Shown here piece after piece: positions 8,212 to 52,302 of a stretch of DNA of 64,000 bases (position 1 is its first letter; every line of letters begins with the position of its first letter). This DNA is from Thermoproteota archaeon. GTDB lineage: Archaea; Thermoproteota; Thermoprotei_A; Sulfolobales; NBVN01. The stretch spans positions 100,950 through 164,949 of the forward strand of contig JAUQPH010000002.1 in assembly GCA_030550455.1 (NCBI GenBank), written 5' to 3'. The position numbers and the translations under genes were made by a program. The notes beneath the pieces were generated by a model that was not told the DNA's origin, did not search any database, and worked only from the letters and a program-made list of their open reading frames with translations.

Positions 8212-8518
8212 TTCTTTCTGGTCTTGTGTTGGTTTGTAGTGATTGATGCTACCCTCGGCAAATGCGTCAGAGGCACCTATAAGTGTCTCTCTATAGAATA
8301 AAGCATAGAATCTTCTCGATAGAGTGTAGAAGCTCGTAGGGAAGCTGAAAGTGAGGTCCTCCCAGAGGGCGACCACGAACTCTAAAACATATAAGATGTG
8401 GAGTACCCCGGAGCCACTCTGATGCTTCCAAGCTCAATGAAGCCTCAAGCGAAATGTGAAGGAGAGATGTGGGTCAATAACATCACTCAGTGCAAGCCAG
8501 CATTAAAGCTGAACCCTG
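8212..8518 (-). repeat. dispersed intergenic element family, copy F (diverged, inverted relative to copy A)
   Basis: The reverse complement aligns block by block to copies A and B: GGGTTCAGCT..TGCTGGCTTG, TTATTGACCC, CATCTCTCCTTCACATTTCGCTTGAGG, CCACATCTT, and the end ..CAAACCAACACAAGACCAGAAAGAA. Confidence 0.55.
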
Positions 8519-8520
8519 AG

Positions 8521-8562
8521 TAGAGATTTAGAGCATCATGGTAGAGATTTAGAGCATCATGT
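8521..8562. repeat. 21-bp tandem duplication (2 units, 20/21 identical) spanning the epimerase stop codon
   Basis: TAGAGATTTAGAGCATCATGG / TAGAGATTTAGAGCATCATGT read directly; the second unit contains the stop (TCA on the + strand, 8557-8559) of the minus-strand ORF. Confidence 0.9.
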
Positions 8563-9498
8563 GCTGAGGGCCGCTCTCAACCTCTCAATGGTGGTCCTTA
8601 ACCCTACGTGTAAAGGTATTGAAGGTTTGAAACCGAGCTCCCTTCTTGCTCTGGTTATGTCTGCTACTGAGTGCACTATATCTTCAGGACGAGTTTCCTC
8701 GTGAACCAGTCCAACATTATCCAGCCCAAGGATCCTTAGTACTTCGTTAGCTAAGTCCAATATTCTCGTAGCTTCACCACTACCTATATTAAACACCCCT
8801 GAAGTCCTAGACTTTAAAGCGCAAACAATAGCTTGTACGACATCTGAAACGTATATGAAATCCCTCGTCTGCTCGCCAGTACCGTATATTACTAGCGGCT
8901 CACCCCTTAGTGCTCTCCTAATAAACTCTATTATCACTCCGGAATAACTCGTACTTTGCCTAGGACCGTAGACATTGAAGATCCTCAAGATCACCGGTCT
9001 AAAGCCGTATATCTTGGAGTAGGACATTAAGTAGAGTTCTCCGGAAGCCTTAGAAGCTCCATACGGGGACTTAGGGCGCAGGGGGTGGTCTTCAGGTATA
9101 GGGATCTTCACAGGGTCACCGTAAACGGCAGAGCTAGAAGCGTATATGAAGGAATCAACTTTCCTAGAGGCTCTAGCTAGGTTGAGAGTCCCAACTACGT
9201 TGACCTCAGCATAGAGGTTGGGTTCTCTAAGTGATTCCTCCACGTCAGTTAGGGCAGCTAAGTGGACAACAGCATCCATACCCGAAACAGCCTTCTCAAC
9301 AGCCTCATAGTCTCTAATATCTCGAACAACCAACTCAACACTACTTAAGATATCACGAATATTTTGGAGACTACCTCGAGAAAGATTATCCAAAACCCTC
9401 ACTTCATAACCTCTAAACACAAGCTCTCTCACGAGGTGACTTCCTATAAACCCAGCACCCCCCGTTACTAAGACTCTCAAACTATCCATCCGCATCAA
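8557..9498 (-). CDS. NAD-dependent epimerase/dehydratase (UDP-sugar 4-epimerase-like, SDR family)
   Basis: 313 aa; Rossmann motif VTGGAGFIGSHL and catalytic YGASK. Confidence 0.85.
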   Translation of the reverse strand: MMRMDSLRVLVTGGAGFIGSHLVRELVFRGYEVRVLDNLSRGSLQNIRDILSSVELVVRDIRDYEAVEKAVSGMDAVVHLAALTDVEESLREPNLYAEVNVVGTLNLARASRKVDSFIYASSSAVYGDPVKIPIPEDHPLRPKSPYGASKASGELYLMSYSKIYGFRPVILRIFNVYGPRQSTSYSGVIIEFIRRALRGEPLVIYGTGEQTRDFIYVSDVVQAIVCALKSRTSGVFNIGSGEATRILDLANEVLRILGLDNVGLVHEETRPEDIVHSVADITRARRELGFKPSIPLHVGLRTTIERLRAALST

Positions 9499-9612
9499 CC
9501 CATGCGTACATAAATTCCATGATAAAAAGCGTAGTGAGACTGTATCTCCTGTAAAAGTTTTTAAGCTGTTTTAGCTACTATAGATACTTGGAATCAATAG
9601 AGGTACTAGGTA

Positions 9613-9850
9613 GTGTCCGAGAAGCTCTATAGAACTAGTGAGGTTGCTGAGTTACTGAACATTAGTGTTTCTACTGTTAAAAAGTGGATAAAGCAGGGTA
9701 GACTGCACGCTCTCAGAGTTGGAAAGCTGTGGATGATCCCGTAGAGCGAAGTCAGGAGGATCCTGAGTGGTGTTGAGAGAAGAGAGATTAGAGCCGCTAT
9801 ATACGCTAGAGTTTCATCACGTAAGCAGAAAACAGATGGTAACTTAGAGC
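9613..9850 (+). pseudogene. tnpA: truncated serine recombinase (IS607-type TnpA / resolvase with N-terminal MerR-like HTH)
   Basis: Translation VSEKLYRTSEVAELLNISVSTVKKWIKQGRLHALRVGKLWMIP*SEVRRILSGVERREIRAAIYARVSSRKQKTDGNLER. It shows the HTH plus the resolvase N-terminal IYARVSS box with the catalytic Ser. There is an in-frame TAG at 9742-9744, and homology ends after LER (about 80 of about 200 expected codons). Confidence 0.7.
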
Positions 9851-10111
9851 GGGGTTCAGCTCTGATGTGGGTTTTTATTGGTTGACTTCACTGCCTCATC
9901 TCTTTCCCCCGCATTCCGCTCGGGTTTTCATCGGGCTTGGGGGCGTTCAGGGTGACCCCTAGCACCCCACATCTTGCTGTGTCTCGGGGAGAGCCCTTGC
10001 CGAGGGCTCTCGATCCCTCATCGAGGTACCTTCACGCATATTAGTGTATAAGGTGTTTATAAATGTTTCTATCATTATCAACCAATACGAACAGATATGA
10101 AAAACGAAACA
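9851..10111 (+). repeat. dispersed intergenic element family, copy A
   Basis: GGGGTTCAGCTC..TATTGGTTGACTTCACTGCCTCATCTC..GCATTCCGCTCGGG..hairpin GAGAGCCC/GGGCTCTC..GATCCCTCATCGAG..TCAACCAATACGAACAGATATGAAAAACGAAACA; long exact blocks are shared with copy C. Confidence 0.8.
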
Positions 10112-10153
10112 GCTTTACAAGGCTTATTGGCTGATAGCTCTCATGGGAACTGG

Positions 10154-10227
10154 AGCCGCCGGCGGGATTTGAACCCGCGACCACCGGCTTACGAGGCCGG
10201 CGCTCTACCGCGCTGAGCTACGGCGGC
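10154..10227 (-). tRNA. tRNA-Thr (anticodon CGU); CCA encoded (extends to 10151)
   Basis: The reverse complement folds as acceptor GCCGCCG/CGGCGGC, anticodon arm CCGGC-CTCGTAA-GCCGG, T arm GCGGG-TTCAAAT-CCCGC. It is nearly identical to tRNA-Thr(UGU) apart from the D loop and anticodon. Confidence 0.9.
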
Positions 10228-10251
10228 TCCATAGGTGTTGTAGTGGATGTT

Positions 10252-10259
10252 CTTATAAG
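10252..10259 (-). promoter_or_regulatory. TATA-like box CTTATAAG about 28 nt upstream of tRNA-Thr(CGU)
   Basis: Same palindromic octamer as at 1484 and 18879, at the spacing expected for an archaeal TATA box. Confidence 0.45.
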
Positions 10260-10325
10260 TTTCGTATATCTGCTTTTACTAAAAAGATAAAGTTTTTGAG
10301 CCCCACACAAAGAACATATTAGCTT

Positions 10326-10958
10326 GTGGGGTTGGTTAGTTATTGGTGGCGAGGTATAGAGCAAGGCAGTATAGTGAGTATAATCGAGAAGTTGTGGGGT
10401 CTGCGAGAGAGTTTGGTGGAGTTTAAAGAGGTAGGACCAGGGTCTCCTCATGGTCTTTACATATACGATAAAGAGAAGGACGTGTGGGTCCTATTTTCGT
10501 CTAAGGATAGCGACGTGTTTCTACCTAAGGTGGATGGTTACTATATCATATACTTCGATAACTCGCGCTGTTCGGCTTGCAGGAAGTACGATCTCCACTG
10601 GTTTCCATACATTAGGCAGAACTCTCAAAAGCTTCCAGACCATTACTTCATTATAGTGTTGTGTGACTGGTTCGCTAGAGAGTGTAAGTCCCCGGTAGCT
10701 AGTAACACCTTTACCTACTACGCTGTTCACGCATCACCTACTACAGTCCTTTTATATGTTAAGAACGGTAAAGAGGTATACAGAGAAACATACGACGGCT
10801 ACCTCAAAATAGATGAGCTCGAGAAAGTAGTCGGCGGCTTTAAGTCCCGAGTTGAGGCGTACGAGAAAGGAATGAAAGTCAGCAAGCCTATAGAGGAAGG
10901 ACAGGACATTATTAAGCTACTTAAGCAGCTTCTCTCTGGTGTTCGAGAAGATGTTTAA
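10326..10958 (+). CDS. hypothetical protein with CxxC motif (possible thioredoxin-like fold)
   Basis: 210-aa ORF with FDNSRCSACRKY (CSAC). The N-terminal 30-40 codons overlap the tRNA promoter region, so the true start is probably downstream. It overlaps the sufS start by 20 nt. Confidence 0.4.
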   Translation: MGLVSYWWRGIEQGSIVSIIEKLWGLRESLVEFKEVGPGSPHGLYIYDKEKDVWVLFSSKDSDVFLPKVDGYYIIYFDNSRCSACRKYDLHWFPYIRQNSQKLPDHYFIIVLCDWFARECKSPVASNTFTYYAVHASPTTVLLYVKNGKEVYRETYDGYLKIDELEKVVGGFKSRVEAYEKGMKVSKPIEEGQDIIKLLKQLLSGVREDV

Positions 10959-12231
10959 CCCATATGAAATTAGAAAAGATTTTCCTATACTGAATAGAAC
11001 GATTAGAGGCAGGAGACTGATCTACTTAGACAACGCAGCAACTTCTCAGAAGCCTAAGCAGGTAGTGGCAGCCATAGCTAAATACTATCTATGGCATAAC
11101 GCAAATGTGCACAGAGGTTTACACACACTCTCTCAAGAAGCAAGCCAGATGTATGAAGAGGCTCACGAATACGTAGCTAAGTTCATTAACGCTAGAAGCT
11201 GGGAAGAAGTGGTGTTTACATACAACGTAACAGAAGCCATAAACCTAGTTGCTTTCACTTGGGGTTTAGCGAACGTTAATCCTGGAGACGAGATAGTCGT
11301 TACGGTCATGGAACACCACTCAAACATGCTTCCCTGGAGAAAGCTAGCTAAGATTAGAGGCGCTAAGGTAGTGTACGTCGATATAACAAATGGTGGTGAG
11401 CTTGCATACGAGGAGTTTGAGAGAGTGATTAGCAAGAGGACTAAGATTGTGGCAACAACATTGATGAGTAACGTTCTTGGAACAATTACAGTAAACGTAG
11501 TAAAGAGTGTAGCTAAGCTGGCTCACGAATACGGTGCTATCGTTGTAGCAGATGGAGCGCAGTACGTACCACACGCACCTACAGATGTTCGCGACCTAGA
11601 GATAGACTTCCTAGGCTTTAGCGGTCACAAGATGTTGGGTCCTATGGGCATAGGAGTTTTGTGGGGCAAAAAGGAGATACTCGAGGAGCTTGAACCCTTT
11701 AAATCAGGGGGAGACACTATCAAGGACGTAACACTCGACGAGGTAGTCTGGCACGACCTTCCTTGGAGGTTTGAGGCTGGAACTCCGAATGTCGGTGGTG
11801 CTGTTGGGTTGAGAGCCGCCATCGAGTACCTAATGAGATTGGGGATGGACTCGGTTAGAGAGCATGAGAAAGAATTAGTAAGATACACTTTTAAGAGGTT
11901 TAACGAGGAACTCGGAGACGCAGTTGAAGTATACGGTCCTAAAGACCCTGAAGTCAGAGGAGGTGTTATATCGTTTAATGTAAAAGGACTGAGTCATCAC
12001 TCGGTCGGCATGGCTTTAGATATGTTTGGGATAGCTGTTAGAACAGGTAAACACTGCGCTCACCCCTTACACTATAGGCTAGGACTCACAGGGACTGTTA
12101 GAGCGAGCTACTACGTTTATAACGTGAAAGAAGAAGTTGATGAGCTTGTAGAGAGTCTTAAGACTATAATTGCCCTAAAGGATAAGCTTCAGTCAGGAGA
12201 AGTAGATGAAAGAGTGTGTACAGGAACCTAG
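10939..12231 (+). CDS. sufS: cysteine desulfurase, SufS/CsdA-type class V aminotransferase
   Basis: 430 aa; PLP-lysine motif FSGHKMLGPMGIGVLWG, catalytic-loop RTGKHCAHPL. Confidence 0.9.
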   Translation: MFEKMFNPYEIRKDFPILNRTIRGRRLIYLDNAATSQKPKQVVAAIAKYYLWHNANVHRGLHTLSQEASQMYEEAHEYVAKFINARSWEEVVFTYNVTEAINLVAFTWGLANVNPGDEIVVTVMEHHSNMLPWRKLAKIRGAKVVYVDITNGGELAYEEFERVISKRTKIVATTLMSNVLGTITVNVVKSVAKLAHEYGAIVVADGAQYVPHAPTDVRDLEIDFLGFSGHKMLGPMGIGVLWGKKEILEELEPFKSGGDTIKDVTLDEVVWHDLPWRFEAGTPNVGGAVGLRAAIEYLMRLGMDSVREHEKELVRYTFKRFNEELGDAVEVYGPKDPEVRGGVISFNVKGLSHHSVGMALDMFGIAVRTGKHCAHPLHYRLGLTGTVRASYYVYNVKEEVDELVESLKTIIALKDKLQSGEVDERVCTGT

Positions 12232-12847
12232 TACCCGCGCAGACATTCAGTCACGAGAAGAGATAATTAAAAAGATAGTGAAAGAGCTGTTGGAGGTTTT
12301 AGGAGAAGACCCTAGTCGAGAAGGACTCAGAGAAACACCTAACAGAGTTTCGCGAATGTGGGTTGAAGAGTTAGCGATGGGTTATTTTGTAGACCCGCTA
12401 ACATACGTTAAGACTTTCGAGGTAGAGGAATATGAGGGTCACGAAGGCTTTGTTGCTGTAACGAACATACCAACTAGGTCTATATGTGAACACCACTTAC
12501 TTCCCTTCTTCGGCTACACCCACGTAGTCTACATACCCTCGGGTAAAGTCCTTGGGTTTAGCAAGTTCGCTAGAGTAATTAAGGTCCTCTCTAGTAAGCT
12601 TCAGATACAGGAAAGACTGACGGAGCAAGTAGCAGACTTCCTTAACGAGGTCCTGAATCCAAGAGGCCTTATAGTGCTCCAAGAAGCTCTTCACACATGT
12701 GCTCTGATTAGAGGTGTTGAAGAGTCTATGACTATGACTACGATGGCTTTGAGGGGAGTGTTTAGAGAGCAGAGGGAGCTAACTAACCTAGCTCTTCAAG
12801 TAATAAATATGAGTAAGTTACAGCTCCCCAAGTTTGAAGGATTCTAG
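12206..12847 (+). CDS. folE: GTP cyclohydrolase I (FolE type)
   Basis: 213 aa; LRETPNRV, SICEHHLLPFFG, LQIQERLTEQ motifs; overlaps the sufS end by 26 nt. Confidence 0.85.
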   Translation: MKECVQEPSTRADIQSREEIIKKIVKELLEVLGEDPSREGLRETPNRVSRMWVEELAMGYFVDPLTYVKTFEVEEYEGHEGFVAVTNIPTRSICEHHLLPFFGYTHVVYIPSGKVLGFSKFARVIKVLSSKLQIQERLTEQVADFLNEVLNPRGLIVLQEALHTCALIRGVEESMTMTTMALRGVFREQRELTNLALQVINMSKLQLPKFEGF

Positions 12848-12938
12848 AGAAATCACTCTATATTTAAAACAGGTTCTTGAGTGCGTAGGTAAAGCGAAAG
12901 CTTTTTAGACGGAAGTCTCCCACGTATTAGGGATAGTA

Positions 12939-14390: not shown

Positions 14391-14442
14391 TTTCTACATT
14401 GATAAGGCGAAGCCAAGGTAAAGTCAATCCACTATCTTTACC

Positions 14443-17174: not shown

Positions 17175-17183
17175 CTATTTAAG
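17175..17183 (+). promoter_or_regulatory. TATA-like box CTATTTAAG about 30 nt upstream of tRNA-Met
   Basis: AT-rich box at archaeal TATA spacing from the tRNA 5' end. Confidence 0.4.
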
Positions 17184-17208
17184 TTTTCTCTGAACCACAC
17201 TTATGGAG

Positions 17209-17298
<90 letters not shown>

Positions 17299-17409
17299 CT
17301 CGGGATGATTAGTGACTCCAATAATGAATAGATGATGCGACTCCATCCCTGTATGACCGCCCTTAAACAGGTTAAAAATGTAACTACTCCTACCTATGTG
17401 GTGTAGGTA

Positions 17410-18791: not shown

Positions 18792-18795
18792 GTTA

Positions 18796-22254: not shown

Positions 22255-22500
22255 GGGGTTAAGCTCCTGTGCTGGCTTGTATTGGTTGATTTCAACGCCT
22301 CGCTCCCGTTTCCCAGCATCTTACTCAGAACCTCATCGGTCTCGGAGCACCCCAGACTCCACACCTTGAGTGTCTTAGTGAGAGCCTTTGCGGGGCTCTT
22401 GATCCCTCATTGAGACCACTTCCGCATATGAAGCGCTAAAGACACTCACAAAAGTCCCCACCCACATCAACCGACATGAATAGATATGAAATCCGAAACA
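22255..22500 (+). repeat. dispersed intergenic element family, copy B
   Basis: GGGGTTAAGCTC..TGCTGGCTTGTATTGGTTGAT..CCGTTTCCCAGC..CACACCTTGAGT..hairpin AGAGCC/GGCTCT..GATCCCTCATTGAG..ATCAACCGACATGAATAGATATGAAATCCGAAACA. Confidence 0.7.
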
Positions 22501-22598
22501 GTCACGTTGTACACCTCGAACTCCTAGCTTACCATAGACACTACTGACCGTACATTGGGCTGTCTTCTTCTTGATCTCACTAGGAAACGTCTATAAGC

Positions 22599-22788
22599 CT
22601 TGTTTCTATCTATTTCTGTGACGAGCCCGGTGGCGATGGGGGCTATGTCCCGAGGTTCTCAGGGCTTAAACTAGGTGGGAGCTCCGTGCGGTTGGGCTCG
22701 GCGGTCACCCATCAACCGACGTGGATACCTAAATCCACGTGGGTGAGGTGGAAGTCCATAGATGTAACCACCAACGAAAACGAAACGA
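22599..22788 (+). repeat. dispersed intergenic element family, copy E (short variant with inverted GTTTC/GAAAC termini)
   Basis: Starts CTTGTTTCTATCTATTTC (inverted form of the family right end). It contains CACCCATCAACCGACGTGGA, matching copy B CACCCACATCAACCGACATGAA, and ends ..CCACCAACGAAAACGAAACGA. Confidence 0.45.
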
Positions 22789-23031
22789 TCGAGATGAACA
22801 TCTAGAGAAAAACGGTTCAAACACTGAGGATAGAACCAAAATGCTCATCGCAAACAGCAAGAGAAGTGGAGAACTTATTTAGATAGGCGTTAGCGTAGCT
22901 TACCACTTTAAGGAGCAGTAACGATGAGATGTTTTGCGCGCTTACAGCGGTAAAGCAATGAATATATGGGATAGTAAATATAGAATAGTAAGTAAATAGT
23001 AAGTAATAAGTATTTCTCTAGTGGGAATTCA

Positions 23032-24324
23032 TCAGGGCTGGAAGGAGGAGAGTACATCTAGCATTACTACTTTAATGTGTTTTCCGATGACTTCAGAAAA
23101 GCTGGGAGTAGTCCTTCCGTTATCGCCATCTACGAGTTCCTTGACGTAGAGACCTCCGTCTACTTTTATTAATGCCTCTAGGAGGTACTTAGACACCAAG
23201 TTGACTCTCACCTCATATACTCTCTTGCGGCGAACAACGTCTTTCCTTCTACTTAGTACTCTAGTAGGAGTCCTCTGGTATATCACTCTATTGCTTAAGC
23301 TGAGAACTTTAAAAACATCCTCTTCGCTAAGTCCCTCCGGAACGATCGCTACTATCCTATACGTTTTCTTAGTTGGTCTAGTCTTTATCGCTCTAACGTA
23401 CTCTCTCGTTGTTTTACCATGTATTATTACATGAGTCCAAGGCTCTGAACTCAGATTTATTTCTGGAGGGTAAGTACTGGGGAGAGAGCGTCGAATAGGG
23501 TCTTTAACCTCTATAACCACGGGTCTACCGTCGCCTAGTACTCTGGCATCAGCGTCCTCGCGACCTGCCGCATGTAATACTAGGTTTTTACCGCCAAATA
23601 TTTCTAAAACACTACGGCAGGTCTCATACACAGAGAGCTTGTATTTTCTTGTCCCATCCTTTCTAAACCAGGGCATCTGAGATATGAATCTACCTGTTTT
23701 TACATACCTACCTCTTAGTAAGAGCGGAAAGGTCTTTATACTTACCTCTCTACTCTCGAGGTTCAGTACTACAAGAATGTCAGGATTGCTGAAACTCGGT
23801 GGAATCGATAACTCCTTAGATATGTACTTACCGACTAACCGCTTAACTTCTCTGCGTATGCTTTCCCAAGTATCAAGACCTAACACTCCAATTACTTCTA
23901 GCTCCCGCTTTTCGTACATCGAACCGGCTTCAACACCAACAAGAAAACTAGAGAATTCACGTTGCTCACCCCTAAGTAGCTTGAGAGCTTCCTCTCCTAG
24001 TTCTAGTATGATTTCATCTAGCTTCGTTCCACATATGTAACAAGTCCCTGTACGGTCTAATTGAAGCTTTGATTCAGCGGGCAGCGATAGCCGAATGCTC
24101 GTTGTCAAGTTCTTTAACTCATCCTCACTAAGCTGGATCTCGGTAAGAAACATTAAGAGAAGAGTTTTGATAGCTCTCCCGCGGTCAGCGTTATCTAGAC
24201 CTCTACCAAGCCTAGCAAACAATCTCCCCAGGCAACGGTCACATAAAGGATACTTTGTAAGAACCCTTAACGCTGCTTCCATGACCTTACTTAAGTTCTC
24301 CCACCTATTAGTCAGACCCTCCAC
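23032..24324 (-). CDS. pus10: tRNA pseudouridine synthase Pus10 (THUMP domain plus catalytic domain)
   Basis: 430 aa; N-terminal Zn module CDRCLGRLFARLG ... CYICG, C-terminal pseudouridine synthase domain (AAGREDADARVLG, GGLYVKELV). Confidence 0.85.
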   Translation of the reverse strand: MEGLTNRWENLSKVMEAALRVLTKYPLCDRCLGRLFARLGRGLDNADRGRAIKTLLLMFLTEIQLSEDELKNLTTSIRLSLPAESKLQLDRTGTCYICGTKLDEIILELGEEALKLLRGEQREFSSFLVGVEAGSMYEKRELEVIGVLGLDTWESIRREVKRLVGKYISKELSIPPSFSNPDILVVLNLESREVSIKTFPLLLRGRYVKTGRFISQMPWFRKDGTRKYKLSVYETCRSVLEIFGGKNLVLHAAGREDADARVLGDGRPVVIEVKDPIRRSLPSTYPPEINLSSEPWTHVIIHGKTTREYVRAIKTRPTKKTYRIVAIVPEGLSEEDVFKVLSLSNRVIYQRTPTRVLSRRKDVVRRKRVYEVRVNLVSKYLLEALIKVDGGLYVKELVDGDNGRTTPSFSEVIGKHIKVVMLDVLSSFQP

Positions 24325-26151: not shown

Positions 26152-26226
26152 GCCGCGGTAGTATAGCCCGGCCTAGTATGCGGGCCTGTCGAGCCCGTGA
26201 CCCGGGTTCAAATCCCGGCCGCGGCG
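26152..26226 (+). tRNA. tRNA-Asp (anticodon GUC)
   Basis: Acceptor GCCGCGG/CCGCGGC, anticodon arm CGGGC-CTGTCGA-GCCCG, T arm CCGGG-TTCAAAT-CCCGG, discriminator G. Confidence 0.9.
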
Positions 26227-26254
26227 CTCGAGTTCTTCTAAGTATTCACTAGTA

Positions 26255-26480: not shown

Positions 26481-26735
26481 TCGTCGTACCCTAGCTTTCA
26501 AGCTAGGCGTGAGTTTAGTTCCATGAGTTATGGTAGCGTCCACAGCCTCCAGCGTATAGTGGCTAATAGCACCAAAACTAGGAATGTAGATTAGAATGTA
26601 GCATGTGGGGGTGGGCTAGGTAACGATCTGAGAAACAACTAACCTTATTTTGAAATAAAATTAAATTATTTTATTTAACAATTTCTAAATAACATAATGT
26701 TTCTAATGAAATAAAATAAATGAGTTATAAAGGGT

Positions 26736-27152
26736 GTGGGTATGGGGGGATATGCTTATATTTACTCTTGGGAGAAATGGATATGGGAGATGCAGGAAGC
26801 TAAGTACATAGTCTATGGGAAGCATGTCTATGGTAGTTTGTATGAGTGTAGATACGAGCTACTAGCTGATCCAGAGTTTCTTAAGAACGTCGTCATAGAG
26901 GCTTCTAAAATAGGTAACATGACGTTACTTGATGTTAAAGTTTGGCACATAAGTCCGGGAGTTAGTGTGATAGCTGTGATTCTAGAGTCGCATATAGCCG
27001 TACACACTTGGCCTGAATATGGTTTTGCTACTGTAGATGTGTACTCCTGCGGAAAGCACTCGAAGCCTGAAGAAGCCTTTAAGTACATAGTCCAGGCTCT
27101 CAATCCGAAGCGGTTTGAGTATACAGTAGCAGATAGGTCCTACTTAGAGTAA
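26736..27152 (+). CDS. speH: S-adenosylmethionine decarboxylase proenzyme (pyruvoyl-dependent, SpeH type)
   Basis: Self-cleavage/active-site region [26 protein letters not shown]. The probable real start is the ATG at 26790 ([12 protein letters not shown]...). Confidence 0.85.
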
Positions 27153-31701: not shown

Positions 31702-31802
31702 GCAAGAGATCCTCTCCAGCGAGCTTAGGAACCTCATGGTCTCAACTTTCATTATCCAACCGATTTCCCACTTAGTTAAAAGTGTATCTCGAAATTCGGG
31801 TA

Positions 31803-32078
31803 GGAGTAAGCTCTCACGTAGTTTTATATTGGTTGACTTCACTGCCTCATCTCCTTTCCCCGCATTCCGCTCGGGCTCTCGTCGGGTTTAGGGGGGTTCG
31901 AGGCGACCCCTAGCACTTCACACCTTGAGTACCTCGGGGAAAGCCGTTGTCTAGGGCATTACAGCAGCTCTCGAATCCCTCATCTAGGTACCTCCACATA
32001 TATCGCTATATACCATAGTATACCTATAGATGTTTCGACCAATACCAACCAATACAAACAGATATGAAAACCGAAACA
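31803..32078 (+). repeat. dispersed intergenic element family, copy C
   Basis: Shares the exact 27-mer TATTGGTTGACTTCACTGCCTCATCTC and GCATTCCGCTCGGG with copy A, contains GAATCCCTCATCTAGGTACC, and ends CCAACCAATACAAACAGATATGAAAACCGAAACA. Confidence 0.8.
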
Positions 32079-32243
32079 ATTGCGTGAGTCGACCGACGTC
32101 CTTAAGCCATATTGTAACTACCGACACAACTAGACACCAGTTTTAGGTGCCGAATCTTATCTTTCGGAATATTAGAAGATCGGCCTTAGAAGAATGCTGA
32201 GTTGCTTATATATCTTCGTGGACTCGTTTAGTGTTGAGGAAGT

Positions 32244-40810: not shown

Positions 40811-40812
40811 AA

Positions 40813-45358: not shown

Positions 45359-45379
45359 CTTCTCACTGCACTATTTCTT

Positions 45380-46231: not shown

Positions 46232-46329
46232 ACCTACGGTATTCTTAATTACCGAGGTTTTAAAGTGGGTTAAGTTTTTCTATAGCAACACTTTCAGACC
46301 TAGAGCTACCGCACATACAAAATAATACT

Positions 46330-46542
46330 GGGGTTCGGGTTTCATACTAGTCGACGTGGTCTGATGTCAACCCCGGCTTCACAGACACCAGCCCTCCCTC
46401 ACTGAGTTCACGCCTTTGGGAAGCCCCATACCTCGGCTTTGAATGCCCTGTCTACTCGGGTCTTCATCACGTACCAGCATCGTGGACAAGCTAGATCTCG
46501 ATAAAGTACCAACCTTTATGAGCTTTCATAAAACCCAAAACA
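46330..46542 (+). repeat. dispersed intergenic element family, copy H (diverged)
   Basis: GGGGTTCGGG..TCTGATGTCAACCCCGGCTTCACAG..CCCTCCCTCA aligns with the copy A left part; ends ACCAACCTTTATGAGCTTTCATAAAACCCAAAACA (compare TCAACCAATACGAACAGATATGAAAAACGAAACA). Confidence 0.45.
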
Positions 46543-46646
46543 GCTACGCTAGGGCATGACTCAAACTCTAAAGGGGATGCGAGAGTTAAAAAACATGTGT
46601 TGTGCGAAAACTTTTCCACGTCGATGGTTTATTGCTTGGAGAGCTA

Positions 46647-47039
46647 CTAAGCGGCTTTTGCTCTTAAGTCCTGGAACACTCTAGTAAGTTCCTCAACTAG
46701 GTCTTTAGCGGCTGCGGGTTCCAGTATAGCTACGGAAGCTGCTGCTACTTGGATTCCGGCTACTTCTCCAAGTCTCTTCTTGCTGGGTACGTAGATGTAT
46801 GGAACCTTCTTTTCGTCGCAGAGATACGGTAAGTGTAGTACAACTTCTGGTGGATCGACGTCAACAGCTATTACGACGAGCTTAGCTTGTCCTCTCTCAA
46901 CAGCTTTAGTAGTTTCGTTCGTGCCTTTCTTGATCTTACCTCCAGATTCTCTAGCTTTCTTGACTGCCTCATAGGCTTTTTCTGCTACTTCCGGTGGTAC
47001 ATCAAACCTTACGTGAGACGGTCTCTTGCTCATCCTCAT
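46647..47039 (-). CDS. rpl7ae: ribosomal protein L7Ae (K-turn binding; also a C/D and H/ACA sRNP component)
   Basis: 130 aa; [43 protein letters not shown]. Confidence 0.95.
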
Positions 47040-47344
47040 CCCCCTTTCGTCGCCTCATAAAGTAGTTACACACTCTTTTAAGCTTTTGACTCGCGCACTC
47101 AAGAACCTTTAGACGCTGGTTCGACATACGAGTAGGAGAGATAATGAAGTTATGAAGAGACTTCATACACCAGCCTAGTACGGTTGTGAGAGCATTAATG
47201 TAGTTTAACTAGACGTGAGTAGCTGCACTAACTAGTGCTTAAGCGTCTTAACGTATTGACGCCTCAATTAGGCAAAGAACGGAGAATCCGCACTCCAGTA
47301 CCCTTAAGATCAGGTGACCATCTCGGTGACATTTGCTAAAATTT

Positions 47345-47385
47345 CTGTTTAATTTTAATTTTATTCTCTCTGTAGATATTGGTTG
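47345..47385 (-). repeat. possible solo terminus of the dispersed element family
   Basis: CTGTTTAATTTTAATTTTATTCTCTCTGTAGATATTGGTTG resembles the inverted family right end CTGTTTCGTTTTTCATATCTGTTCGTATTGGTTG; no recognisable core follows. Confidence 0.3.
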
Positions 47386-47626
47386 CGCATCGATAGATTT
47401 AAGCGGCATCTGCGATTCTTGCGTAAAGAGGCTGGTGACCGCTGTCTACTTATAATTAGGTGATGTTCTACTATTGCCACTACTATTAGAATTTAGAAAA
47501 TAGGATTTAGAGTGATGTAGGAAACAGTAAGACAAATCTAAGGAGTATAGTAGCTGTAGACTGCTCAGCAGTGTAAAGGACGTTAACTTAGATATAGTGC
47601 TGGTACTATAGGTATTTTGGGGTCGT

Positions 47627-48478
47627 TTGCTAAGGGACATAGCTCGGAAGGTGCTGGGGAACTCTTTAGCGCGTAGGATATGGAAGAGAGTAGAGATCAT
47701 AGGTGATATAGCTGTCCTCAGAAAGCCATTAGACCTCGACTTAGAAGTAGAGGCATATAGAAACCTCGCCATAGAGCTGATGAACAGACTTCCGTACGTT
47801 AAGTCTGTCTGGCTTGCCGTAACACCTGTAGAAGGTAGCTACAGAACTAGAGAGTTCGTACACTTAGCTGGAGAACCCAGAAGCGAGACTGTGTATAAAG
47901 AACATGGTTGCTTATTTAAGTTGGATATAACTAAGGTGTATGTATCACCTGCGCTGAATTACGAGCACGCAAGGATAGCTAAACTGGTTAGGCCAGGTGA
48001 GGAAGTTTTCAACATGTTTGCTGGAGTAGGTCTCTTTTCGATTATAATAGCTAAATACTCGAAGCCTAAGCGTGTAGTATCAGTAGATATAAACCCCGAT
48101 GCGTTTAGTTACATGGTAGAGAATGTTAGACTCAACGGCGTCTCCGGGGTTGTAGTTCCAGTATTAGGTGATGCTAGAGAAGTAGCTAGGTCTTGCACTA
48201 ACTGCTTTGATAGGATTTTAATGCCTCTACCTGAGCTCGCTTACGAATACTTCGAAGACTCGGTATTAGCATTAAAGGATGTGGGGGTCATACATGTGTA
48301 CGAGTTCATAACCGCTAAAACGAAGAATGAGGCTATTCAAGAAGCATGGAATAAGTACTTAAGAAGGTGTAAATCTATTGGTGTAAAAGCCGAGGTAATA
48401 GGGTCACGAGTAGTTAGGTCTGTCGGTCCGCGCTACTACCAGGTTGTTCTTGACCTTCAGCTCGAGAAGATTTCCTAG
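47627..48478 (+). CDS. taw2: tRNA methyltransferase of the Trm5/Taw2 (Met-10+) family
   Basis: 283 aa; SAM-binding NMFAGVGLFSI, DINP, NLP-like MPLPE. Confidence 0.8.
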   Translation: MLRDIARKVLGNSLARRIWKRVEIIGDIAVLRKPLDLDLEVEAYRNLAIELMNRLPYVKSVWLAVTPVEGSYRTREFVHLAGEPRSETVYKEHGCLFKLDITKVYVSPALNYEHARIAKLVRPGEEVFNMFAGVGLFSIIIAKYSKPKRVVSVDINPDAFSYMVENVRLNGVSGVVVPVLGDAREVARSCTNCFDRILMPLPELAYEYFEDSVLALKDVGVIHVYEFITAKTKNEAIQEAWNKYLRRCKSIGVKAEVIGSRVVRSVGPRYYQVVLDLQLEKIS

Positions 48479-49673
48479 CTTTCTTTCTAGACCTACCTGG
48501 TTCTGTCTTCTCAGAAACAGGTATGACCTTAACACCTAAGCCCATGAGCTTCATAGTGACCTCCTCTAAGAACCTTATGTATGAGCCTTTCTGACCCATT
48601 AATGGGCCGAGGTTTTCACTCTCAATTCTTATTGCGAGATAGGAGCCCATTAGGTTTACCTTAGTTCTCTTCCATATCCATGAAACTGGATGAACAGACC
48701 TTATGTAGCTGTTCAAGTCTAAGTCTAGTTCCACTCCTCTGACTCTACTACCAAGTTCTTTCTCTATAGCCGAAATTCTCTCACCACCTCTACCTACAAG
48801 ACGTCCTAGGTGTCCAGGCTTAACGATAACTAAGTACTTAGGTACGTGATCTAGCGATATCCCGTACTTCTTAGCTATCTCCTCTATCTCCACAACAGTC
48901 ACTACGTCAGCATCCGGTGAGTGCATCTTTATTACTTGCAGTGCCTTAGCTTCTGATTCCTGTAGCTTCCTAGACCTAAGTGCATACTCGAGCAAGAACC
49001 TTACCCCGGTTTTCGCACCTTCTCTAACGATATCCTCTATACCTAGGTCCACGACGTACGCGTTAGGCTCACTGAGGAGTATCTCTCTAAGCGTAGATAT
49101 GTGGTCGTGCTGTGTGCCTCTTAGCGTTTGAAAGATTGGGTCAGCCGCAATTATCAGTCGACTTCTAACTCCTAGCCTTACGATGACCTCGAGTAGTATC
49201 TCAAGTCTAACGTGTTGGGCGTCATCTATAAATATCAAGGTTTCATCGAATGTCCTACCCTTTAGGTAGTGACCATCTGTCAGCAGGAGCTTCCCGGACT
49301 TCAAGAGCTCCAATATCTTCGGTGGGTCTATAAAGCTCCCTAAGACGTCGGATAAGTACTCACTAGCAAGCTTAGTGTATTCTTCACTCGCTTCTGCTAG
49401 TGTCAGCTCTCTTCCAGTAACGACATCGATCACGGGCTTAACTACTACGAACCTCTTGAACTTGTTATTACTTATTGACTCTATTCCGTAGGCTAGAGAG
49501 AAGAGAGACTTCCCACTCCCGGTGGGCCCGAAGACACCTACTATGGAGTAAGACTCTGCCTTTAAAGCTTCCAACAGCCTTTTCTGACCATCACTTTGGG
49601 GCTTCACGCTCTCTAGTATCACTCTCAACCACCTAAGACTCGTGATTATTGTTAGCTTAAAAGCGTGTGTCAC
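48414..49673 (-). CDS. PhoH-like ATPase fused to a KH RNA-binding domain
   Basis: 419 aa; Walker A GPTGSGKS, Walker B LIFIDDAQ, KH GxxG-like LVGRGGERI; basic low-complexity tail. Confidence 0.75.
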   Translation of the reverse strand: MTHAFKLTIITSLRWLRVILESVKPQSDGQKRLLEALKAESYSIVGVFGPTGSGKSLFSLAYGIESISNNKFKRFVVVKPVIDVVTGRELTLAEASEEYTKLASEYLSDVLGSFIDPPKILELLKSGKLLLTDGHYLKGRTFDETLIFIDDAQHVRLEILLEVIVRLGVRSRLIIAADPIFQTLRGTQHDHISTLREILLSEPNAYVVDLGIEDIVREGAKTGVRFLLEYALRSRKLQESEAKALQVIKMHSPDADVVTVVEIEEIAKKYGISLDHVPKYLVIVKPGHLGRLVGRGGERISAIEKELGSRVRGVELDLDLNSYIRSVHPVSWIWKRTKVNLMGSYLAIRIESENLGPLMGQKGSYIRFLEEVTMKLMGLGVKVIPVSEKTEPGRSRKKARKSSRAEGQEQPGSSADRQT

Positions 49674-50313
49674 TAAACTATTTACTGGTCAACCTACTCC
49701 CAGTATTGGGGAATCTGTGGGTGTAGTAGACAAGAGCTTGTGGCTAAAAGAGAAGGACTATATGCGTAAAAGAATGCTTGAGGACTTAGACATAGGCTAT
49801 CTCGACCCCGATATATACCACGTACTACTCGCAATCTTTATGAGAGAGGAAGCCTTTCCGATAAGCTCGTGTAGTGGCAGGATAACTATAGTAGACGCGC
49901 CGATGCCGTGGCACCGTAAAAGCTCTGCTGTGATATTTAAGAAGCATACGGTAGTCGAAGAACATGAAGTTCTTTCAGTGCTCAGGAATTCTCCTCCTAT
50001 AAACAGACTCTGGCTAGTAGCTACCGGCCCCATATTTCACATATCTACACTAACCCTACGAGAAGCGCTGTCTATACTTAGGATAGCTCGTGAAGCAGGC
50101 ATGAAGCATAGTGGTATACTGTCTATTAGCAGAAGGGGAATACTCGTCGAACTTAAAACAGGAGTGAGAGTTACGATTCTCCTAAGGTCTAGGGACTTCG
50201 TAATTAGTGATCTCCAGGAGGCTATCAGAGCCACTAACGAGGCCCTCCTAGAGGGTAAGAGCAGGCTCGCCAAACTCTACGACCTACTCCTAAGTTCGAG
50301 CCGTAGTCAGTAG
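49642..50313 (+). CDS. taw3: tRNA wybutosine-synthesizing protein 3 homologue (Taw3/TYW3)
   Basis: 223 aa; SSCSGRI motif and TYW3-like layout. The annotated start overlaps the divergent phoH-like start, so the real start is probably downstream (e.g. MRKRMLEDL). Confidence 0.7.
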   Translation: MIIVSLKACVTKLFTGQPTPSIGESVGVVDKSLWLKEKDYMRKRMLEDLDIGYLDPDIYHVLLAIFMREEAFPISSCSGRITIVDAPMPWHRKSSAVIFKKHTVVEEHEVLSVLRNSPPINRLWLVATGPIFHISTLTLREALSILRIAREAGMKHSGILSISRRGILVELKTGVRVTILLRSRDFVISDLQEAIRATNEALLEGKSRLAKLYDLLLSSSRSQ

Positions 50314-50347
50314 GAGTAGAGCCAGCATTCTTGTATTCTGACACAAG

Positions 50348-50572
50348 CTACAGCAGTAGCTCTAGGGGCTGCTTGCAGTAAGGACACTTGTAGTGGAGTA
50401 CTCTAGCGTCACTTGAGCAGAAGTATGCCCCGTACTTAGTGGAGCAGTTACTACAGTAGTATACTGACGCTTCACCGATTACTAAGTTCCTCGAGCACAC
50501 CTTACACCTCTTTGTTGCCCACCCAGCGTGTCCACCAGCATTAGTTCCCACCAGCTTAACCAGAGGTAACAC
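50348..50572 (-). CDS. small Cys-rich zinc-ribbon protein
   Basis: 74 aa with CKVC...CSNC...C...CPYC pairs. Confidence 0.4.
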   Translation of the reverse strand: MLPLVKLVGTNAGGHAGWATKRCKVCSRNLVIGEASVYYCSNCSTKYGAYFCSSDARVLHYKCPYCKQPLELLL

Positions 50573-50614
50573 CCTTGAGGTGTCTACGCGCTGTTTTTAA
50601 GCTTTACAGAGTAC

Positions 50615-51373
50615 GTGAAGGGGAGTATGACATCAACAGCGAGGCTATTGGCGTTTGGTGACGTCCACGGCGTGCAGTATCTAGGTGTTCTGAGGGCGTC
50701 TTTAAAGAGTATACAGCCTGAGGGATTACACGCGATCTTGCTGGCTGGTGATATTATCGATAGAGGAGACGTTAGCAGCATGAGCATGGTTTTAAGGGAA
50801 ATCACTTCGAGGTTCAAGGACGTTCCTATAGTTTCAGTCTTTGGGAACGATGAATACCACGAGATAGAAGACTACTTAATCAAGAACTTTAGCTATGTAA
50901 TATGGTTAAATGACTCTGTTACCGTTTTAAAGGCAGGGGACGTCACGATAGGGATAGTAGGTAGTAGAGGGTCTCTAGACAAGCTCACATACTGGCAGAG
51001 CAAGAACATGCCACAGCTCGAGACAGTGTATAGGAGGAGAGTAGGCGTCTTGAGGAAGTTGCTCGAGGAGGTCTCTAAGGTATCTGATATAGCGATACTG
51101 CTGACACACTACGCTCCTACTTATCAGACGATTAAGGGAGAACCCGAGAAGATATACCCCTACATGGGTTGCAGGCACTTAGAGGAAGTAATACGTGAGG
51201 TAAAACCAGATATAGCGATTCACGCACACGCTCACAACGCTACTGTGACTGAAGCAGTAATAGGATTCACCAGGGTCTACAACGTGTCTCTACCGGCAAG
51301 AAAGGGTGTGACTCACATATCTATTGCTCCAAGGGTTAAACTCGTCCGAATGGATGCGGGCGCTCAGAGATGA
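50615..51373 (+). CDS. calcineurin-like metallophosphoesterase
   Basis: 252 aa; FGDVHG, GDIIDRG, GNDE, THYAP, HAHAHN. Confidence 0.8.
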   Translation: MKGSMTSTARLLAFGDVHGVQYLGVLRASLKSIQPEGLHAILLAGDIIDRGDVSSMSMVLREITSRFKDVPIVSVFGNDEYHEIEDYLIKNFSYVIWLNDSVTVLKAGDVTIGIVGSRGSLDKLTYWQSKNMPQLETVYRRRVGVLRKLLEEVSKVSDIAILLTHYAPTYQTIKGEPEKIYPYMGCRHLEEVIREVKPDIAIHAHAHNATVTEAVIGFTRVYNVSLPARKGVTHISIAPRVKLVRMDAGAQR

Positions 51374-51993
51374 GCTTCCTAACTGAGCTTAAGAAGCTTT
51401 CCGAGCCTATTGGAGGTGTCAAACCCTCGTTCGATGTTTATCATGCCTACTTAGCTCTAGTAAGCTTATACCATGAAGCTCCCATGGGTAGGCTAGCACT
51501 TTCTAAGAAACTTGCCCTAGGAGAGGCTTCAGTTAAGACCCTCATTAAGAGGATGAGAAGTAGGGGGTTTATTAATGTAGATAAAGTAGCGGGGATCTTT
51601 CTCACTCGAGAAGGTCTAGAACTAGTAGAGAACTTAAATAAAGTCCTCGATTTTCTAGGTCAACTGGATATAAGTGATGTATGTGCTAACTGCGAAGCTT
51701 ATGGGGTAGTCATAAAGAAGTTTAGAGAGGTTCTTGCTGAAAGGATCGGGTACCTAAAGTTGCGAGACCAGATAGTTCGAGAAGGAGCAGAGGGAGCCAT
51801 CATAGTGTATTGTGGGGATGTCCCAGTAATGCCAGTAAGCGGTGGCCTCGAGAGAGCAGAGGGAGTACTCAGAGACATAGCTCTTAAGTACTGTAGTGGG
51901 GGAGATGTACTAGCTATGTCGATCTGCTATAACAATCGAGGGACTTGTGCTAGGGCTCTAGTGAATGCTGTGCTGAAGATCCTCGACCCCTAG
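51370..51993 (+). CDS. hypothetical protein with N-terminal winged-helix-like region (possibly DUF4443)
   Basis: 207 aa; ATGA overlap with the upstream phosphoesterase; LGEASVKTLIKRMRSRGFI looks wHTH-like. Confidence 0.35.
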   Translation: MSFLTELKKLSEPIGGVKPSFDVYHAYLALVSLYHEAPMGRLALSKKLALGEASVKTLIKRMRSRGFINVDKVAGIFLTREGLELVENLNKVLDFLGQLDISDVCANCEAYGVVIKKFREVLAERIGYLKLRDQIVREGAEGAIIVYCGDVPVMPVSGGLERAEGVLRDIALKYCSGGDVLAMSICYNNRGTCARALVNAVLKILDP

Positions 51994-52047
51994 TTAACTG
52001 AGCAAAGAACCGAGCTACTGATAGCAGAGACTCTCTACAGATTGTCT

Positions 52048-52302
52048 TGTTTCGGTTTTCTTGGTTATTTGGGATACTTCTATGGATTTAGGGAACTAGT
52101 CATCAGAAAGTAAAGTTATACAAATAACCAGGTGTCCAGGTAGTTATGAGCTTATGAGCTGTAAGCGAAGAGCGATTCACAGGGTCTCGTCCCTCATCGA
52201 CGGCTCTAAGGATCCAGAAACCCTGGTGCCGCAGGTGGGGAGAGCGGGGACGAAGAGGTGGGGTGAACCCGTGTTAAGAAAATCCAAATCAACTGAAACA
52301 AC
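52048..52302 (-). repeat. dispersed intergenic element family, copy D (both termini inverted: TTGTTTCGGTT ... AACTGAAACAA)
   Basis: The reverse complement ends AAATAACCAAGAAAACCGAAACA and contains CCACCTCTTCGTCCCCGCTCTCC (compare TGCCTCATCTCTTTCCCCCGCATTCC). On the + strand the two ends are TTGTTTCGGTTT and its near-inverse CAACTGAAACAA. Confidence 0.6.

Follow-up and report, generated by a model that had tools for sequence, protein, structure and literature searches.

Intergenic repeats in a hyperthermophilic Thermoproteota genome as probable PATE-type derivatives of a tnpB-only insertion sequence with a predicted omega-RNA-type right end

Short gene-free sequences that resemble one another recur along a 64-kb stretch of Thermoproteota DNA (hereafter, the window), which raises the question of whether they form a single family and from what they derive. 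A first-pass annotation had claimed at least eight copies. The family is real but smaller than first claimed, with five copies in the 64 kb: A, B, C, F, and H stood, whereas, among the nine sequences originally listed, three to four (D, G, E, and a 41-nt solo end) were non-members. Copies A, B, C, and F were unambiguous members by blastn, nhmmer, and covariance model (CM), with full-length homology over 250–310 nt. Copy A matched C at 77% over 271 nt (blastn E = 2e-53) and B at 67%, and identity among the window copies was only 67–77%; nhmmer E-values ranged from 1e-50 to 1e-84 and CM scores from 78 to 158 bits. The shared strings quoted in the annotation were all located in the sequence, and six occurrences of TATTGGTTG were counted in the window, where 0.27 would be expected. 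As had been described, the copies carried no conserved ORF and overlapped no gene. Copy H (46330..46551, − strand) is a strongly diverged member: its left end (LE) was detected by nhmmer (E = 0.002 against the whole window and 7.5e-6 against candidate regions), and its right-end (RE) tip, …CCGAACCCC at 46330, falls at the exact spot of a weak CM match (9.9 bits; 46330–46444).

The remaining candidates were not confirmed as members. G and the solo end, which holds only one TATTGGTTG 9-mer, scored at chance (z = −0.3 and 0.2, respectively), and D (z = 3.5; nhmmer, −4.6 bits) was statistically unsupported, having in common with the family only TGTTTCGGTTTTC, an LE-like string of 13–24 nt. E is unrelated, its sole likeness to the family being a BRE/TATA-like promoter. 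E has homologues of its own elsewhere and constitutes a separate candidate for a conserved non-coding RNA.

A search with the left-box pattern led to archaeal loci in which the two repeat halves flank an ORF of 407–412 aa on the opposite strand, and thereby to a parent of ~1.5 kb in related archaeal MAGs and metagenomes. Between its LE and RE, the parent carries first a small antisense ORF and then tnpB (407–414 aa, TnpB/Cas12f-like) preceded by a TATA promoter; the tip of the RE lies 5 nt past the tnpB stop codon. The ORF was assigned to TnpB by PF07282 (2.6e-14 and 8e-17), TIGR01766, and PDB matches to TnpB/Cas12f, and scored 104.8 bits against NF040570 (cutoff, 100); the IS200/IS605 model scored slightly above the IS607 model, both scores being far under their cutoffs. 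Three motifs with the RuvC catalytic residues, as read from the sequence, were kept (TIDVNFDN, IVLENLNKL, and GDRDVVACINL). The window copies aligned to three parent blocks: the LE tip, the promoter together with ~18 initial codons, and the final ~125 nt; the E-values make an alignment artefact implausible. Contrary to the proposal that only a right-end module had been kept, the copies thus retain both ends as well as the tnpB promoter and a 5′ coding stub. The proposed origin from a TnpB element of the IS605/IS607 type holds: the copies are non-autonomous and ORF-free, and their TnpB-encoding parent was found. No tnpA was seen beside any of the ~11 full-length loci. Neither tnpB nor tnpA was found within the 64-kb window; the two JGI samples that contain the window's organism (L052 and L120) also contain an intact element (L123/L124). 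The parent insertion sequence (IS) is common in hot-spring Thermoproteota, namely Desulfurococcaceae/Sulfolobales, Ignisphaera, and relatives. Other genomes and metagenome contigs contain close relatives of A and C (82–88% identity) at loci unrelated to those in the window, so that the short form itself has spread.

The strand of tnpB is opposite to the orientation first assigned to the repeats. The predicted omega-RNA/RE boundary is the end formerly regarded as the left one (…GAGCTGAACCCC and then the flank; in reverse complement, …CAGAGCTGAACCCC and then the guide). An element end corresponding to an omega-RNA-encoding region therefore exists as had been suggested, but in inverted orientation, and the CGAAACA end is the LE. 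Nor is CGAAACA a sharp boundary, because homology runs on for 9 nt (TCGTGAAAC in tnpB sense) up to a conserved GCC. Comparison of an empty site (L073) with a filled one (L071, in which nrfD is split) showed that the two differ exactly by the IS, at …ATTGCC^ACAAG… and with no duplication, which sets the boundary between GCC and TCGTG. Of 26 independent LE junctions, 21 carried GCC; insertion occurs 3′ of (W)GCC without target duplication. The inverted repeat between the left and right boxes proved genuine, extending to 20–31 nt in full-length relatives. Its reading as a closing helix around a 200-nt core is unlikely, since the TATA box is located downstream of the LE arm, which would therefore be absent from the transcript.

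Copy A (9851..10120, − strand, equivalent to tnpB sense; 270 nt) is the best-preserved copy (nhmmer E = 5.6e-84; CM, 157.7 bits), and its RE shared 87–92% identity with those of intact tnpB elements. Beside its LE, GCC (10121..10123, −) constitutes the target motif and presumed TAM, and is part of the target rather than the element. The LE block (10075..10120, −; TTGTAAAGC TGTTTCG…) matches positions 1–48 of full-length parents; a palindrome, AAAGC-T-GTTTC, lies near the LE terminus, and the left arm of the supported inverted repeat, TATTGGTTGA, is at 10078–10087 (−). An archaeal TATA-like box from the tnpB promoter, GAAACATTTATAAAC (10056..10064, −), aligned with …AGAAAG(A/C)(T/C)TATAAAC upstream of tnpB in L013, L030, and L123, and we infer that it functions as a promoter. 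The start-codon remnant CTCGATGAGGG (10019..10021, −) aligned to the ATG/GTG of the parents' tnpB, although the reading frame was not preserved. The 5′ hairpin, GAGAGCCC-loop-GGGCTCTC (9989..10011, −), is a local hairpin already reported in the first-pass annotation. The RE module (9851..9975, −) comprises the last ~40 tnpB codons plus 5 nt and ends with …CAGAGCTGAACCCC at 9851, where inter-copy similarity also ends. It matched the TnpB C-terminus by tblastn (92% over 25 aa) and is homologous to the region that encodes omega RNA scaffolds. From the TnpB/omega-RNA architecture, the flank 3′ of the RE, GCTCTAAGTTACCATCTGTT (9831..9850, −), is the predicted guide.

The other copies are less well preserved. 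Copy C (31802..32087, −; nhmmer E = 2.2e-77; CM, 122.7 bits; RE tip ±1 nt) has GAC at the TAM position (32088–32090) and occupies the same locus in three conspecific MAGs. Copy B (22255..22509, −; nhmmer E = 1.8e-51; CM, 77.6 bits), placed also by alignments, is diverged, has no P2 hairpin, and shows GTA at the TAM position; the GCC motif has thus been lost in both B and C. Copy F (8205..8517, +; nhmmer E = 4.5e-50; CM, 87.8 bits) is likewise diverged and contains two additional internal segments, with GCC at 8202–8204. In copy H, which is also present in a JGI contig from the same species, the LE begins with TAGCGTAGCTGTTTTGG… directly after CCC. The promoter block was kept in all copies. Copy A appears young enough to be functional, as does C with less clarity; B, F, and H probably represent relics in decay.

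Structural conservation was assessed for both hairpin and RE. Across 18 copies, 87.9% of the cells of the 5′ hairpin were paired, compared with 45–54% in slid controls, and its loop was hypervariable (39% identity); between copies, the two tips and the hairpin stems were the most conserved parts, and the loop and 5′ UTR the least. The RE structure model showed 84.9% pairing against 31–48% in slid controls, a contrast inflated by the use of copy A's own fold as the tested structure, and its score was reached by 2 of 500 shuffles. G·U cells outnumbered A·C cells in the RE module (99 vs 48), which favours the tnpB-sense strand. Double-sided compensatory changes in the RE were few (12 of 687 cells), the pairs with such a change were not above shuffles, and RNAalifold alone returned a single 4-bp helix. 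Part of the RE conservation arises because this region is protein-coding in the parents. The pairing potential of the module is conserved, with the tnpB-sense strand favoured, and the structure is modelled tentatively. Rfam and sequence comparisons gave no match of the module to any described RNA.

Taken together, the repeats are very likely PATE/MITE-type non-autonomous derivatives of the ~1.5-kb tnpB-only IS with a retained omega-RNA-type right end, for which omega-RNA function is predicted. Two deletions inside the element, each at a short microhomology (TGAT and AGG), would have taken out the small antisense ORF and ~350 tnpB codons, leaving the LE tip, the tnpB BRE/TATA promoter with start codon and 5′ hairpin, and the last ~125 nt. 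Each copy may be transcribed from the retained promoter on the tnpB-sense strand into an RNA of ~170–190 nt, in which a scaffold ending in …GAGCUGAACCCC would precede a guide derived from the 3′ flank. TnpB from full-length copies elsewhere could bind this RNA and, after excision, cut the restored empty site (GCC plus flank), favouring re-copying of the element. Movement would require a transposase in trans, none being encoded beside any copy.

Two other readings of the repeats concern their identity and direction. Part of the initial list did go astray through resemblance to promoters, as E resembles the family only through its BRE/TATA-like stretch; nevertheless, the full-length homology of A, B, C, and F, more than 20 copies elsewhere, and the tnpB parent leave a negligible probability that generic promoter or terminator motifs, and not homology, account for the blocks shared by A, B, C, F, and H. 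An RNA running in the originally assigned + orientation, with its scaffold ending in …CGAAACA, would fit the conserved GAAA[AT][AC]CGAAACA of A, B, and C. We regard it as highly improbable given that tnpB on the opposite strand makes this end the LE, that homology continues beyond it, that the empty/filled pair places the boundary elsewhere, and that the excess of G·U cells points to the opposite strand.

Whether the copies still act is a separate matter. They could be inert, decaying relics of a TnpB IS, immobile and with no working guide RNA, whose blocks reflect the needs of the last active masters. The low identity between window copies, the loss of GCC in B and C, of one hairpin in B, and the insertions in F are in line with such decay, as are the lack of tnpB and tnpA in the window, the scarcity of compensatory changes, and the fixation of C at one locus across several conspecific assemblies. 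This reading is plausible but somewhat doubtful, because the RE of copy A is 87–92% identical to those of intact elements, tips and stems are distinctly more conserved than loop and 5′ UTR, every copy has the promoter block, intact elements occur in the same samples, and relatives of A and C lie at unrelated loci. The alternative of a host-domesticated family, whether co-opted as sRNA genes, to provide neighbours with promoters or terminators, or to guide a TnpB-like regulator that is nuclease-dead, gained no support and is very unlikely. The copies are indeed intergenic beside housekeeping genes and tRNAs, B, C, and F lie directly 3′ of a gene, and the promoter is kept; however, orientation relative to neighbours is inconsistent, the tnpB-sense strand opposing the upstream gene at B, C, and F, and copies at orthologous positions were not conserved between genera. 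Moreover, the guides are mere flanks, 16-mers of which matched viral contigs at chance only and without GCC or extension, and the parent TnpB keeps its three RuvC catalytic-residue motifs.

As derivatives of a tnpB IS, the window repeats are PATE-type, an already known kind of element. PATEs originated as IS605-type elements minus their core (PMC3119063; Haloquadratum) and often encode omega RNAs used in trans (PMC10055086; Geobacillus minimal elements), and 3′-end ncRNAs of archaeal tnpB are documented (PMC4615843). Shared with PATEs are the lack of a transposase gene and of target duplication, the same termini as in IS elements that carry tnpB, microhomology-mediated core deletion, a C-terminal tnpB remnant kept as the RE, and a short target motif adjoining the insertion. 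Unlike the IS605/IS1341-type PATEs of Haloquadratum and Geobacillus, the window elements reside in a hyperthermophilic Thermoproteota host, also keep the tnpB promoter and 5′ stub as a promoter-plus-RE unit, and have ends with a 10–31-nt imperfect inverted repeat with an 8-nt offset; their target motif is G/C-rich (GCC), in contrast to the AT-rich motifs reported for IS608, ISDra2, and SisTnpB1. As in TnpB omega RNA/reRNA (ISDra2, PMC8612924; sotRNAs, PMC4615843; SisTnpB1, bioRxiv 10.1101/2023.03.06.531077), the module overlaps the tnpB 3′ end and extends to the RE boundary; the sequence past that boundary is the would-be guide and the LE-flank motif the would-be TAM. It differs in lying inside a gene-less element, so that TnpB would be needed in trans, and in its tentatively modelled structure. 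IS607 (serine-recombinase TnpA plus TnpB; PMC6188088) is similar in having no strict terminal inverted repeats, no target duplication, and repeated subterminal motifs, and a CC dinucleotide (GG on the other strand) at both target and transposon tip fits a 2-bp-core exchange. No serine-recombinase gene was found beside any copy of the window family, which sets it apart from IS607. Classical MITEs, such as the Sulfolobus SM elements, are short, non-coding, and multi-copy, with transposase supplied in trans. The window repeats share all of these features but are without terminal inverted repeats or target-site duplication, and the entire repeat, more than the common tips, is a deletion derivative of its parent IS.

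Pairwise alignment of the repeats in the window showed that copy A (9851–10120, −; strands follow the sense of tnpB) was 77% identical to copy C (31802–32087, −) over 271 nt and 67% identical to copy B (22255–22509, −), and the sequence strings quoted in the first-pass annotation as common to the copies were all found in the window. With a profile of A, B, C, and F (8205–8517, +), these four copies alone were recovered within the window, and a richer profile from 17 copies added the left-end (LE) part of copy H (46330–46551, −) with an E-value of 0.002. The covariance model of the right-end (RE) module scored A at 158, C at 123, F at 88, and B at 78 bits, and placed H, at 9.9 bits, exactly where it was expected; read by eye, copy H started as CCC followed by TAGCGTAGCTGTTTTGG and ended in …CCGAACCCC at 46330. 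Among 18 short copies, identity was highest in the RE tip (78.5%), the 3′ stem of the hairpin (77%), the LE repeat (75%), and the LE tip (72%), and lowest in the loop (39%) and the 5′ UTR (55%).

The other items listed as copies, D, E, G, and a 41-nt solo end, were unsupported as members by nhmmer --max, by the unfiltered covariance model, and by alignment against shuffles, with a short LE-like string in D as the sole exception. That string, TGTTTCGGTTTTC…, was all that D had in common with the family (z of 3.5; −4.6 bits in nhmmer). Local alignment against shuffles gave chance-level similarity for G and the solo end (z of −0.3 and 0.2, respectively), and the likeness of E, which had homologues of its own, was confined to a BRE/TATA-like stretch. 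The family therefore comprises five supported members in 64 kb (A, B, C, F, and H), rather than the eight or more initially counted. The absence of ORFs was borne out, as the copies, of 222–313 nt, contained only chance ORFs of at most 59 aa and no conserved ORF; the tnpB frame was broken in the short copies, which were too short for a transposase.

When the sequence regarded as the left box was searched against one genome per species, seven archaeal loci were matched, and in five of them the left and right repeat halves lay ~1.05 kb apart. The interval contained an ORF of 407–412 aa, encoded on the strand opposite to the orientation first assigned to the repeats, which matched TnpB profiles (PF07282, TIGR01766, and NF040570, the last at 104.8 bits with a cutoff of 100). 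Its PDB matches to TnpB and Cas12f were weak but consistent, and motifs bearing the RuvC catalytic residues Asp, Glu, and Asp (TIDVNFDN, IVLENLNKL, and GDRDVVACINL) and a CxxC…CxxC zinc ribbon were visible. On these sequence features, the ORF of the parent element is a TnpB. Homologues of this protein with E-values below 1e-30 numbered 543 and came from hot-spring Thermoproteota MAGs and metagenomes.

The full parent element was ~1.5 kb long, as in loci L030 (1842–3340), L013 (1079–2579), L064 (3729–5229), and L123 (445–1942) from other assemblies and metagenomes. It was arranged in the order LE tip, antisense ORF of 47–52 aa, TATA-like box, tnpB, and RE, with an LE tip of TCGTG(A/C)AAC TGTTTCGG… and an RE ending in …CAGAGCTGAACCCC, 5 nt past the tnpB stop codon. 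An LE-pattern search of metagenomes had returned 13 matches, all of them short copies, and the parent LE tip was recognized later via a profile. Two JGI samples contained both the organism of the window and the intact copies in L123 and L124. The window is archaeal, has a G+C content of 45%, and was 99.8% identical over 14.7 kb to a JGI hot-spring metagenome contig (L052); an exact protein match assigned it to contig JAWBEB010000003.1 of MAG GCA_038821485.1, and the protein was also encoded in three other conspecific MAGs. The plasmid collection yielded no match when queried with the full IS. In locus L121 (2387–4095), an intact IS adjoined genes for an HTH protein and a Cdc6/Orc1-like protein, and this copy may be located on a plasmid or integrated element. 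In locus L006 (5159–5671), a second, distant tnpB-like reading frame (27–29% identity) was directly beside the tnpB of the family, which suggests nested or tandem TnpB elements.

The small ORF antisense to tnpB, situated between the LE and the tnpB promoter, was conserved in every full-length parent copy and deleted in all short copies. It was found on the minus strand in L013 (1127–1285), L064 (3777–3923), L065 (2281–2424), L066 (2277–2423), and L123 (494–637), and also in L050 (271–426). Its products shared the motif …YPLGKDKEKIKHLHGKEV.VLI.AEE and were 55–81% identical between elements, and they matched no entry in Pfam, NCBIfam, or PDB.

Comparison of the short copies with the parent by nhmmer revealed matches to the LE, promoter, and RE blocks in L013, L030, L064–L071, and L123, with both termini homologous to those of the tnpB IS. 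Three parent blocks were kept in the short copies: LE positions 1–48, ~107 nt comprising the promoter and the first ~18 codons, and the last ~135 nt. This alignment corrects the view that only the right-end module was kept, as the LE and the promoter with a 5′ tnpB stub were retained together with the RE. Microhomologies of TGAT and AGG were present at the two deletion junctions, the same pattern as in the repeat-mediated core deletion described as a route for palindrome-associated transposable elements (PATEs) (PMC3119063). The RE of copy A was 87–92% identical to intact REs, that of C 79–81%, and those of B and F 66–72%. Relatives of A and C with 82–88% identity were present at unrelated loci in other assemblies, and the short form itself has therefore spread. 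A tblastx comparison across genera detected no orthologous copy positions, only one nearby epimerase homologue in a different arrangement (L003). The epimerase gene was also queried for strain polymorphism of A and F, but its protein had no database entry, probably because the start codon had been called differently. The initial proposal of a non-autonomous derivative of a TnpB-encoding IS thus holds, given a tnpB-carrying parent with homologous termini, and the parent that had been sought was found as a tnpB element with no adjoining tnpA seen. Judged from sequence comparison, the repeats appear to be gene-less deletion derivatives that fit the definition of PATEs.

The element boundaries were defined from an insertion in nrfD. 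The full IS split this gene in L071/L072, its removal restored an ORF of 380 aa, and an unsplit allele was identified by database search (protein P0121; DNA, L073). The empty site in L073 read …GATGAATATTGCC^ACAAGATAGG…, and the filled site …ATTGCC-TCGTGCAAC…GAGCTGAACCCC-ACAAG…; this pair showed that the parent was inserted 3′ of GCC without target duplication. GCC was present at 21 of 26 independent LE junctions, with A/T preferred one position upstream, and no repeat between the LE and RE flanks of short copies was seen in the 26 junctions. Because the RE ends in CC (…ACCCC), as does the target motif GCC, three crossover points are indistinguishable, and the crossover is equally possible one or two bases earlier. 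The empty/filled pair and the 26 junctions therefore place CGAAACA, previously taken as the element boundary, 9 nt inside the element at its LE, the true LE boundary being at GCC. With tnpB on the opposite strand, the strand and the ends were reversed relative to the first reading, and the sharp stop in similarity among copies on the guide side was at …ACCCC, the RE.

The complementarity of the left and right boxes proved real, spanning 20–31 nt in full-length copies with an offset of 8 nt between the ends, and the inverted repeat exceeded shuffles in most elements tested. The LE arm lay upstream of the TATA box; the inverted repeat is therefore a DNA-level feature and not the closing RNA helix that had been considered, and it is presumably a transposase site. 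Short palindromes with sequences differing between the ends (GAAAC-T-GTTTC in the LE and TCAG-AG-CTGA in the RE) were also found near the tips, in addition to this subterminal inverted repeat.

The structure model tested for the RE combined three elements: a long-range pairing of GAUGUGGG with CCYAYAUC, an AGGG-loop-CCCU hairpin, and a CCCCC/GGGGG stem that has an inner helix. When applied to 22 RE sequences, RNAalifold returned a single 4-bp helix. In the model, 84.9% of cells were paired across 31 sequences, compared with 31–48% with slid partners, a control biased by the derivation of the model from the fold of copy A itself. The covariation score was equalled by only 2 of 500 shuffles, and double-sided changes were limited to 12 cells; at one pair, six cells carried G-C in place of C-G, and the parents showed coordinated codon changes there (P/G swaps). 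G·U combinations outnumbered A·C (99 and 48 cells, respectively) and the opposite strand had 77.4% of cells paired rather than 84.9%, which favors the tnpB-sense strand. The local hairpin noted at first pass was conserved (87.9% paired, compared with 45–54% for slid controls) with a hypervariable loop. Searches of Rfam (the window at the gathering score, copy A and region E at E ≤ 1) returned only tRNAs and one sub-threshold chance match; in the window only tRNAs reached the gathering score, and nothing was matched at E ≤ 1 in 9800–10150. The module spanned the 3′ end of tnpB, with its tip 5 nt after the stop codon, where the similarity between copies ended. Sequence position and modeled pairing are consistent with an omega-RNA-type module. 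A 2015 study had documented ncRNAs at the 3′ ends of archaeal tnpB genes (PMC4615843).

Several known classes share features with these elements. Like the short copies, PATEs have no transposase gene, generate no duplication, and carry termini of IS605/IS1341-type elements; trans-acting omega RNAs are frequent in them (PMC3119063; PMC10055086), an observation that the copies match. The present elements are particular in their host lineage, the retained promoter, the G/C-rich target motif, and the combination of an offset inverted repeat with a small antisense ORF in the parent. Insertion 3′ of a short LE-flank motif is shared with IS200/IS605, whereas no Y1_Tnp gene (Pfam) neighbored the ~11 full-length loci. 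The 2-bp core exchange of IS607 (PMC6188088) predicts exactly the observed combination of CC and no duplication, which is compatible with this route but not specific to it, and no neighboring gene with a Resolvase domain (serine recombinase) was found in any fetched locus. Classical MITEs, in contrast, combine terminal inverted repeats with target duplication, while the inverted repeat here is subterminal and offset and no duplication was seen. No tnpB was present within the 64-kb window and no tnpA beside the full-length copies; both proteins would have to act in trans.

In a mechanism modeled on the TnpB scheme established previously (PMC8612924; PMC10055086; PMC10278001), a short RNA, consisting of the scaffold followed by a flank-derived guide at its 3′ end, would be transcribed from the retained promoter. 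After excision, TnpB from intact copies would be guided by this RNA to cleave the empty site flanked by GCC, and the occupied site would be spared, with …CCCC replacing WGCC beside the guide. A broader reading, in which the short copies act as compact mini-genes of promoter and omega RNA, supplying additional, dispersed guides to TnpBs encoded elsewhere, and in which the parent represents an undescribed tnpB-only lineage (GCC-targeting, with offset inverted-repeat ends, a conserved antisense ORF of 47–52 aa, and no recognizable transposase), seems to us improbable. If such a parent lineage exists, its transposition might depend on neither of the established TnpA routes (Y1 or serine). In viral contigs, the left box had no match, and the four guide 16-mers (A, B, C, and F) had 5–19 matches each, none with an upstream GCC or reaching 20 nt; these matches were judged to be at chance level from a rough, uncomputed estimate of the collection size.

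These data trace how a TnpB IS of hyperthermophilic archaea was reduced to a unit lacking genes, with the parent, deletion junctions, boundaries, and target motif defined, and with the putative promoter and the predicted guide-RNA-coding end still present in the shrunken unit. The current understanding is unchanged, PATEs and trans-used omega RNAs having already been described. The thermophilic TnpB family, with hundreds of homologues and an unusual G/C-rich target motif, could interest genome-editing work. The repeats also account for MAG contig breaks in the species of the window: contigs from three assemblies of this species (L061, L062, and L063) ended ~130–250 nt upstream of rpoG, inside or beside copy C, in line with a repeat present in multiple copies, and L061 and L062 started within the copy C element.

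Region E (22557–22790, +), between copy B and pus10 (23032–24324, −), was a separate conserved non-coding element. It consisted of a BRE/TATA-like AGGAAAcgtcTATAAGC followed by ~150 nt, a stretch with 72% identity to L048 (12466–12674) and with similarity to L055 (−); the element contained no ORF and had no Rfam match. In a comparison of only three sequences, RNAalifold predicted 42 pairs, of which 11 showed compensatory changes. Region E is a candidate unannotated structured sRNA gene. Near copy A, a stand-alone HTH_17/MerR-like ORF of 43 aa (9613–9744, +; Pfam E-value of 5e-13) was located 107 nt from the RE tip, and the LE was 27 nt downstream of tRNA-Thr(CGU) (10151–10227, −) on the same strand. 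The non-member G region abutted tRNA-Asp (26152–26227, +). Two tRNA genes of 90 nt (17210–17299) and 96 nt (56008–56103), untyped by ARAGORN and with odd anticodon loops, are most likely intron-containing archaeal tRNAs. An AT-rich imperfect palindrome (26647–26698; self-match of 78–82% over 34–36 nt) was located just upstream of the S-adenosylmethionine decarboxylase gene (26736–27152).
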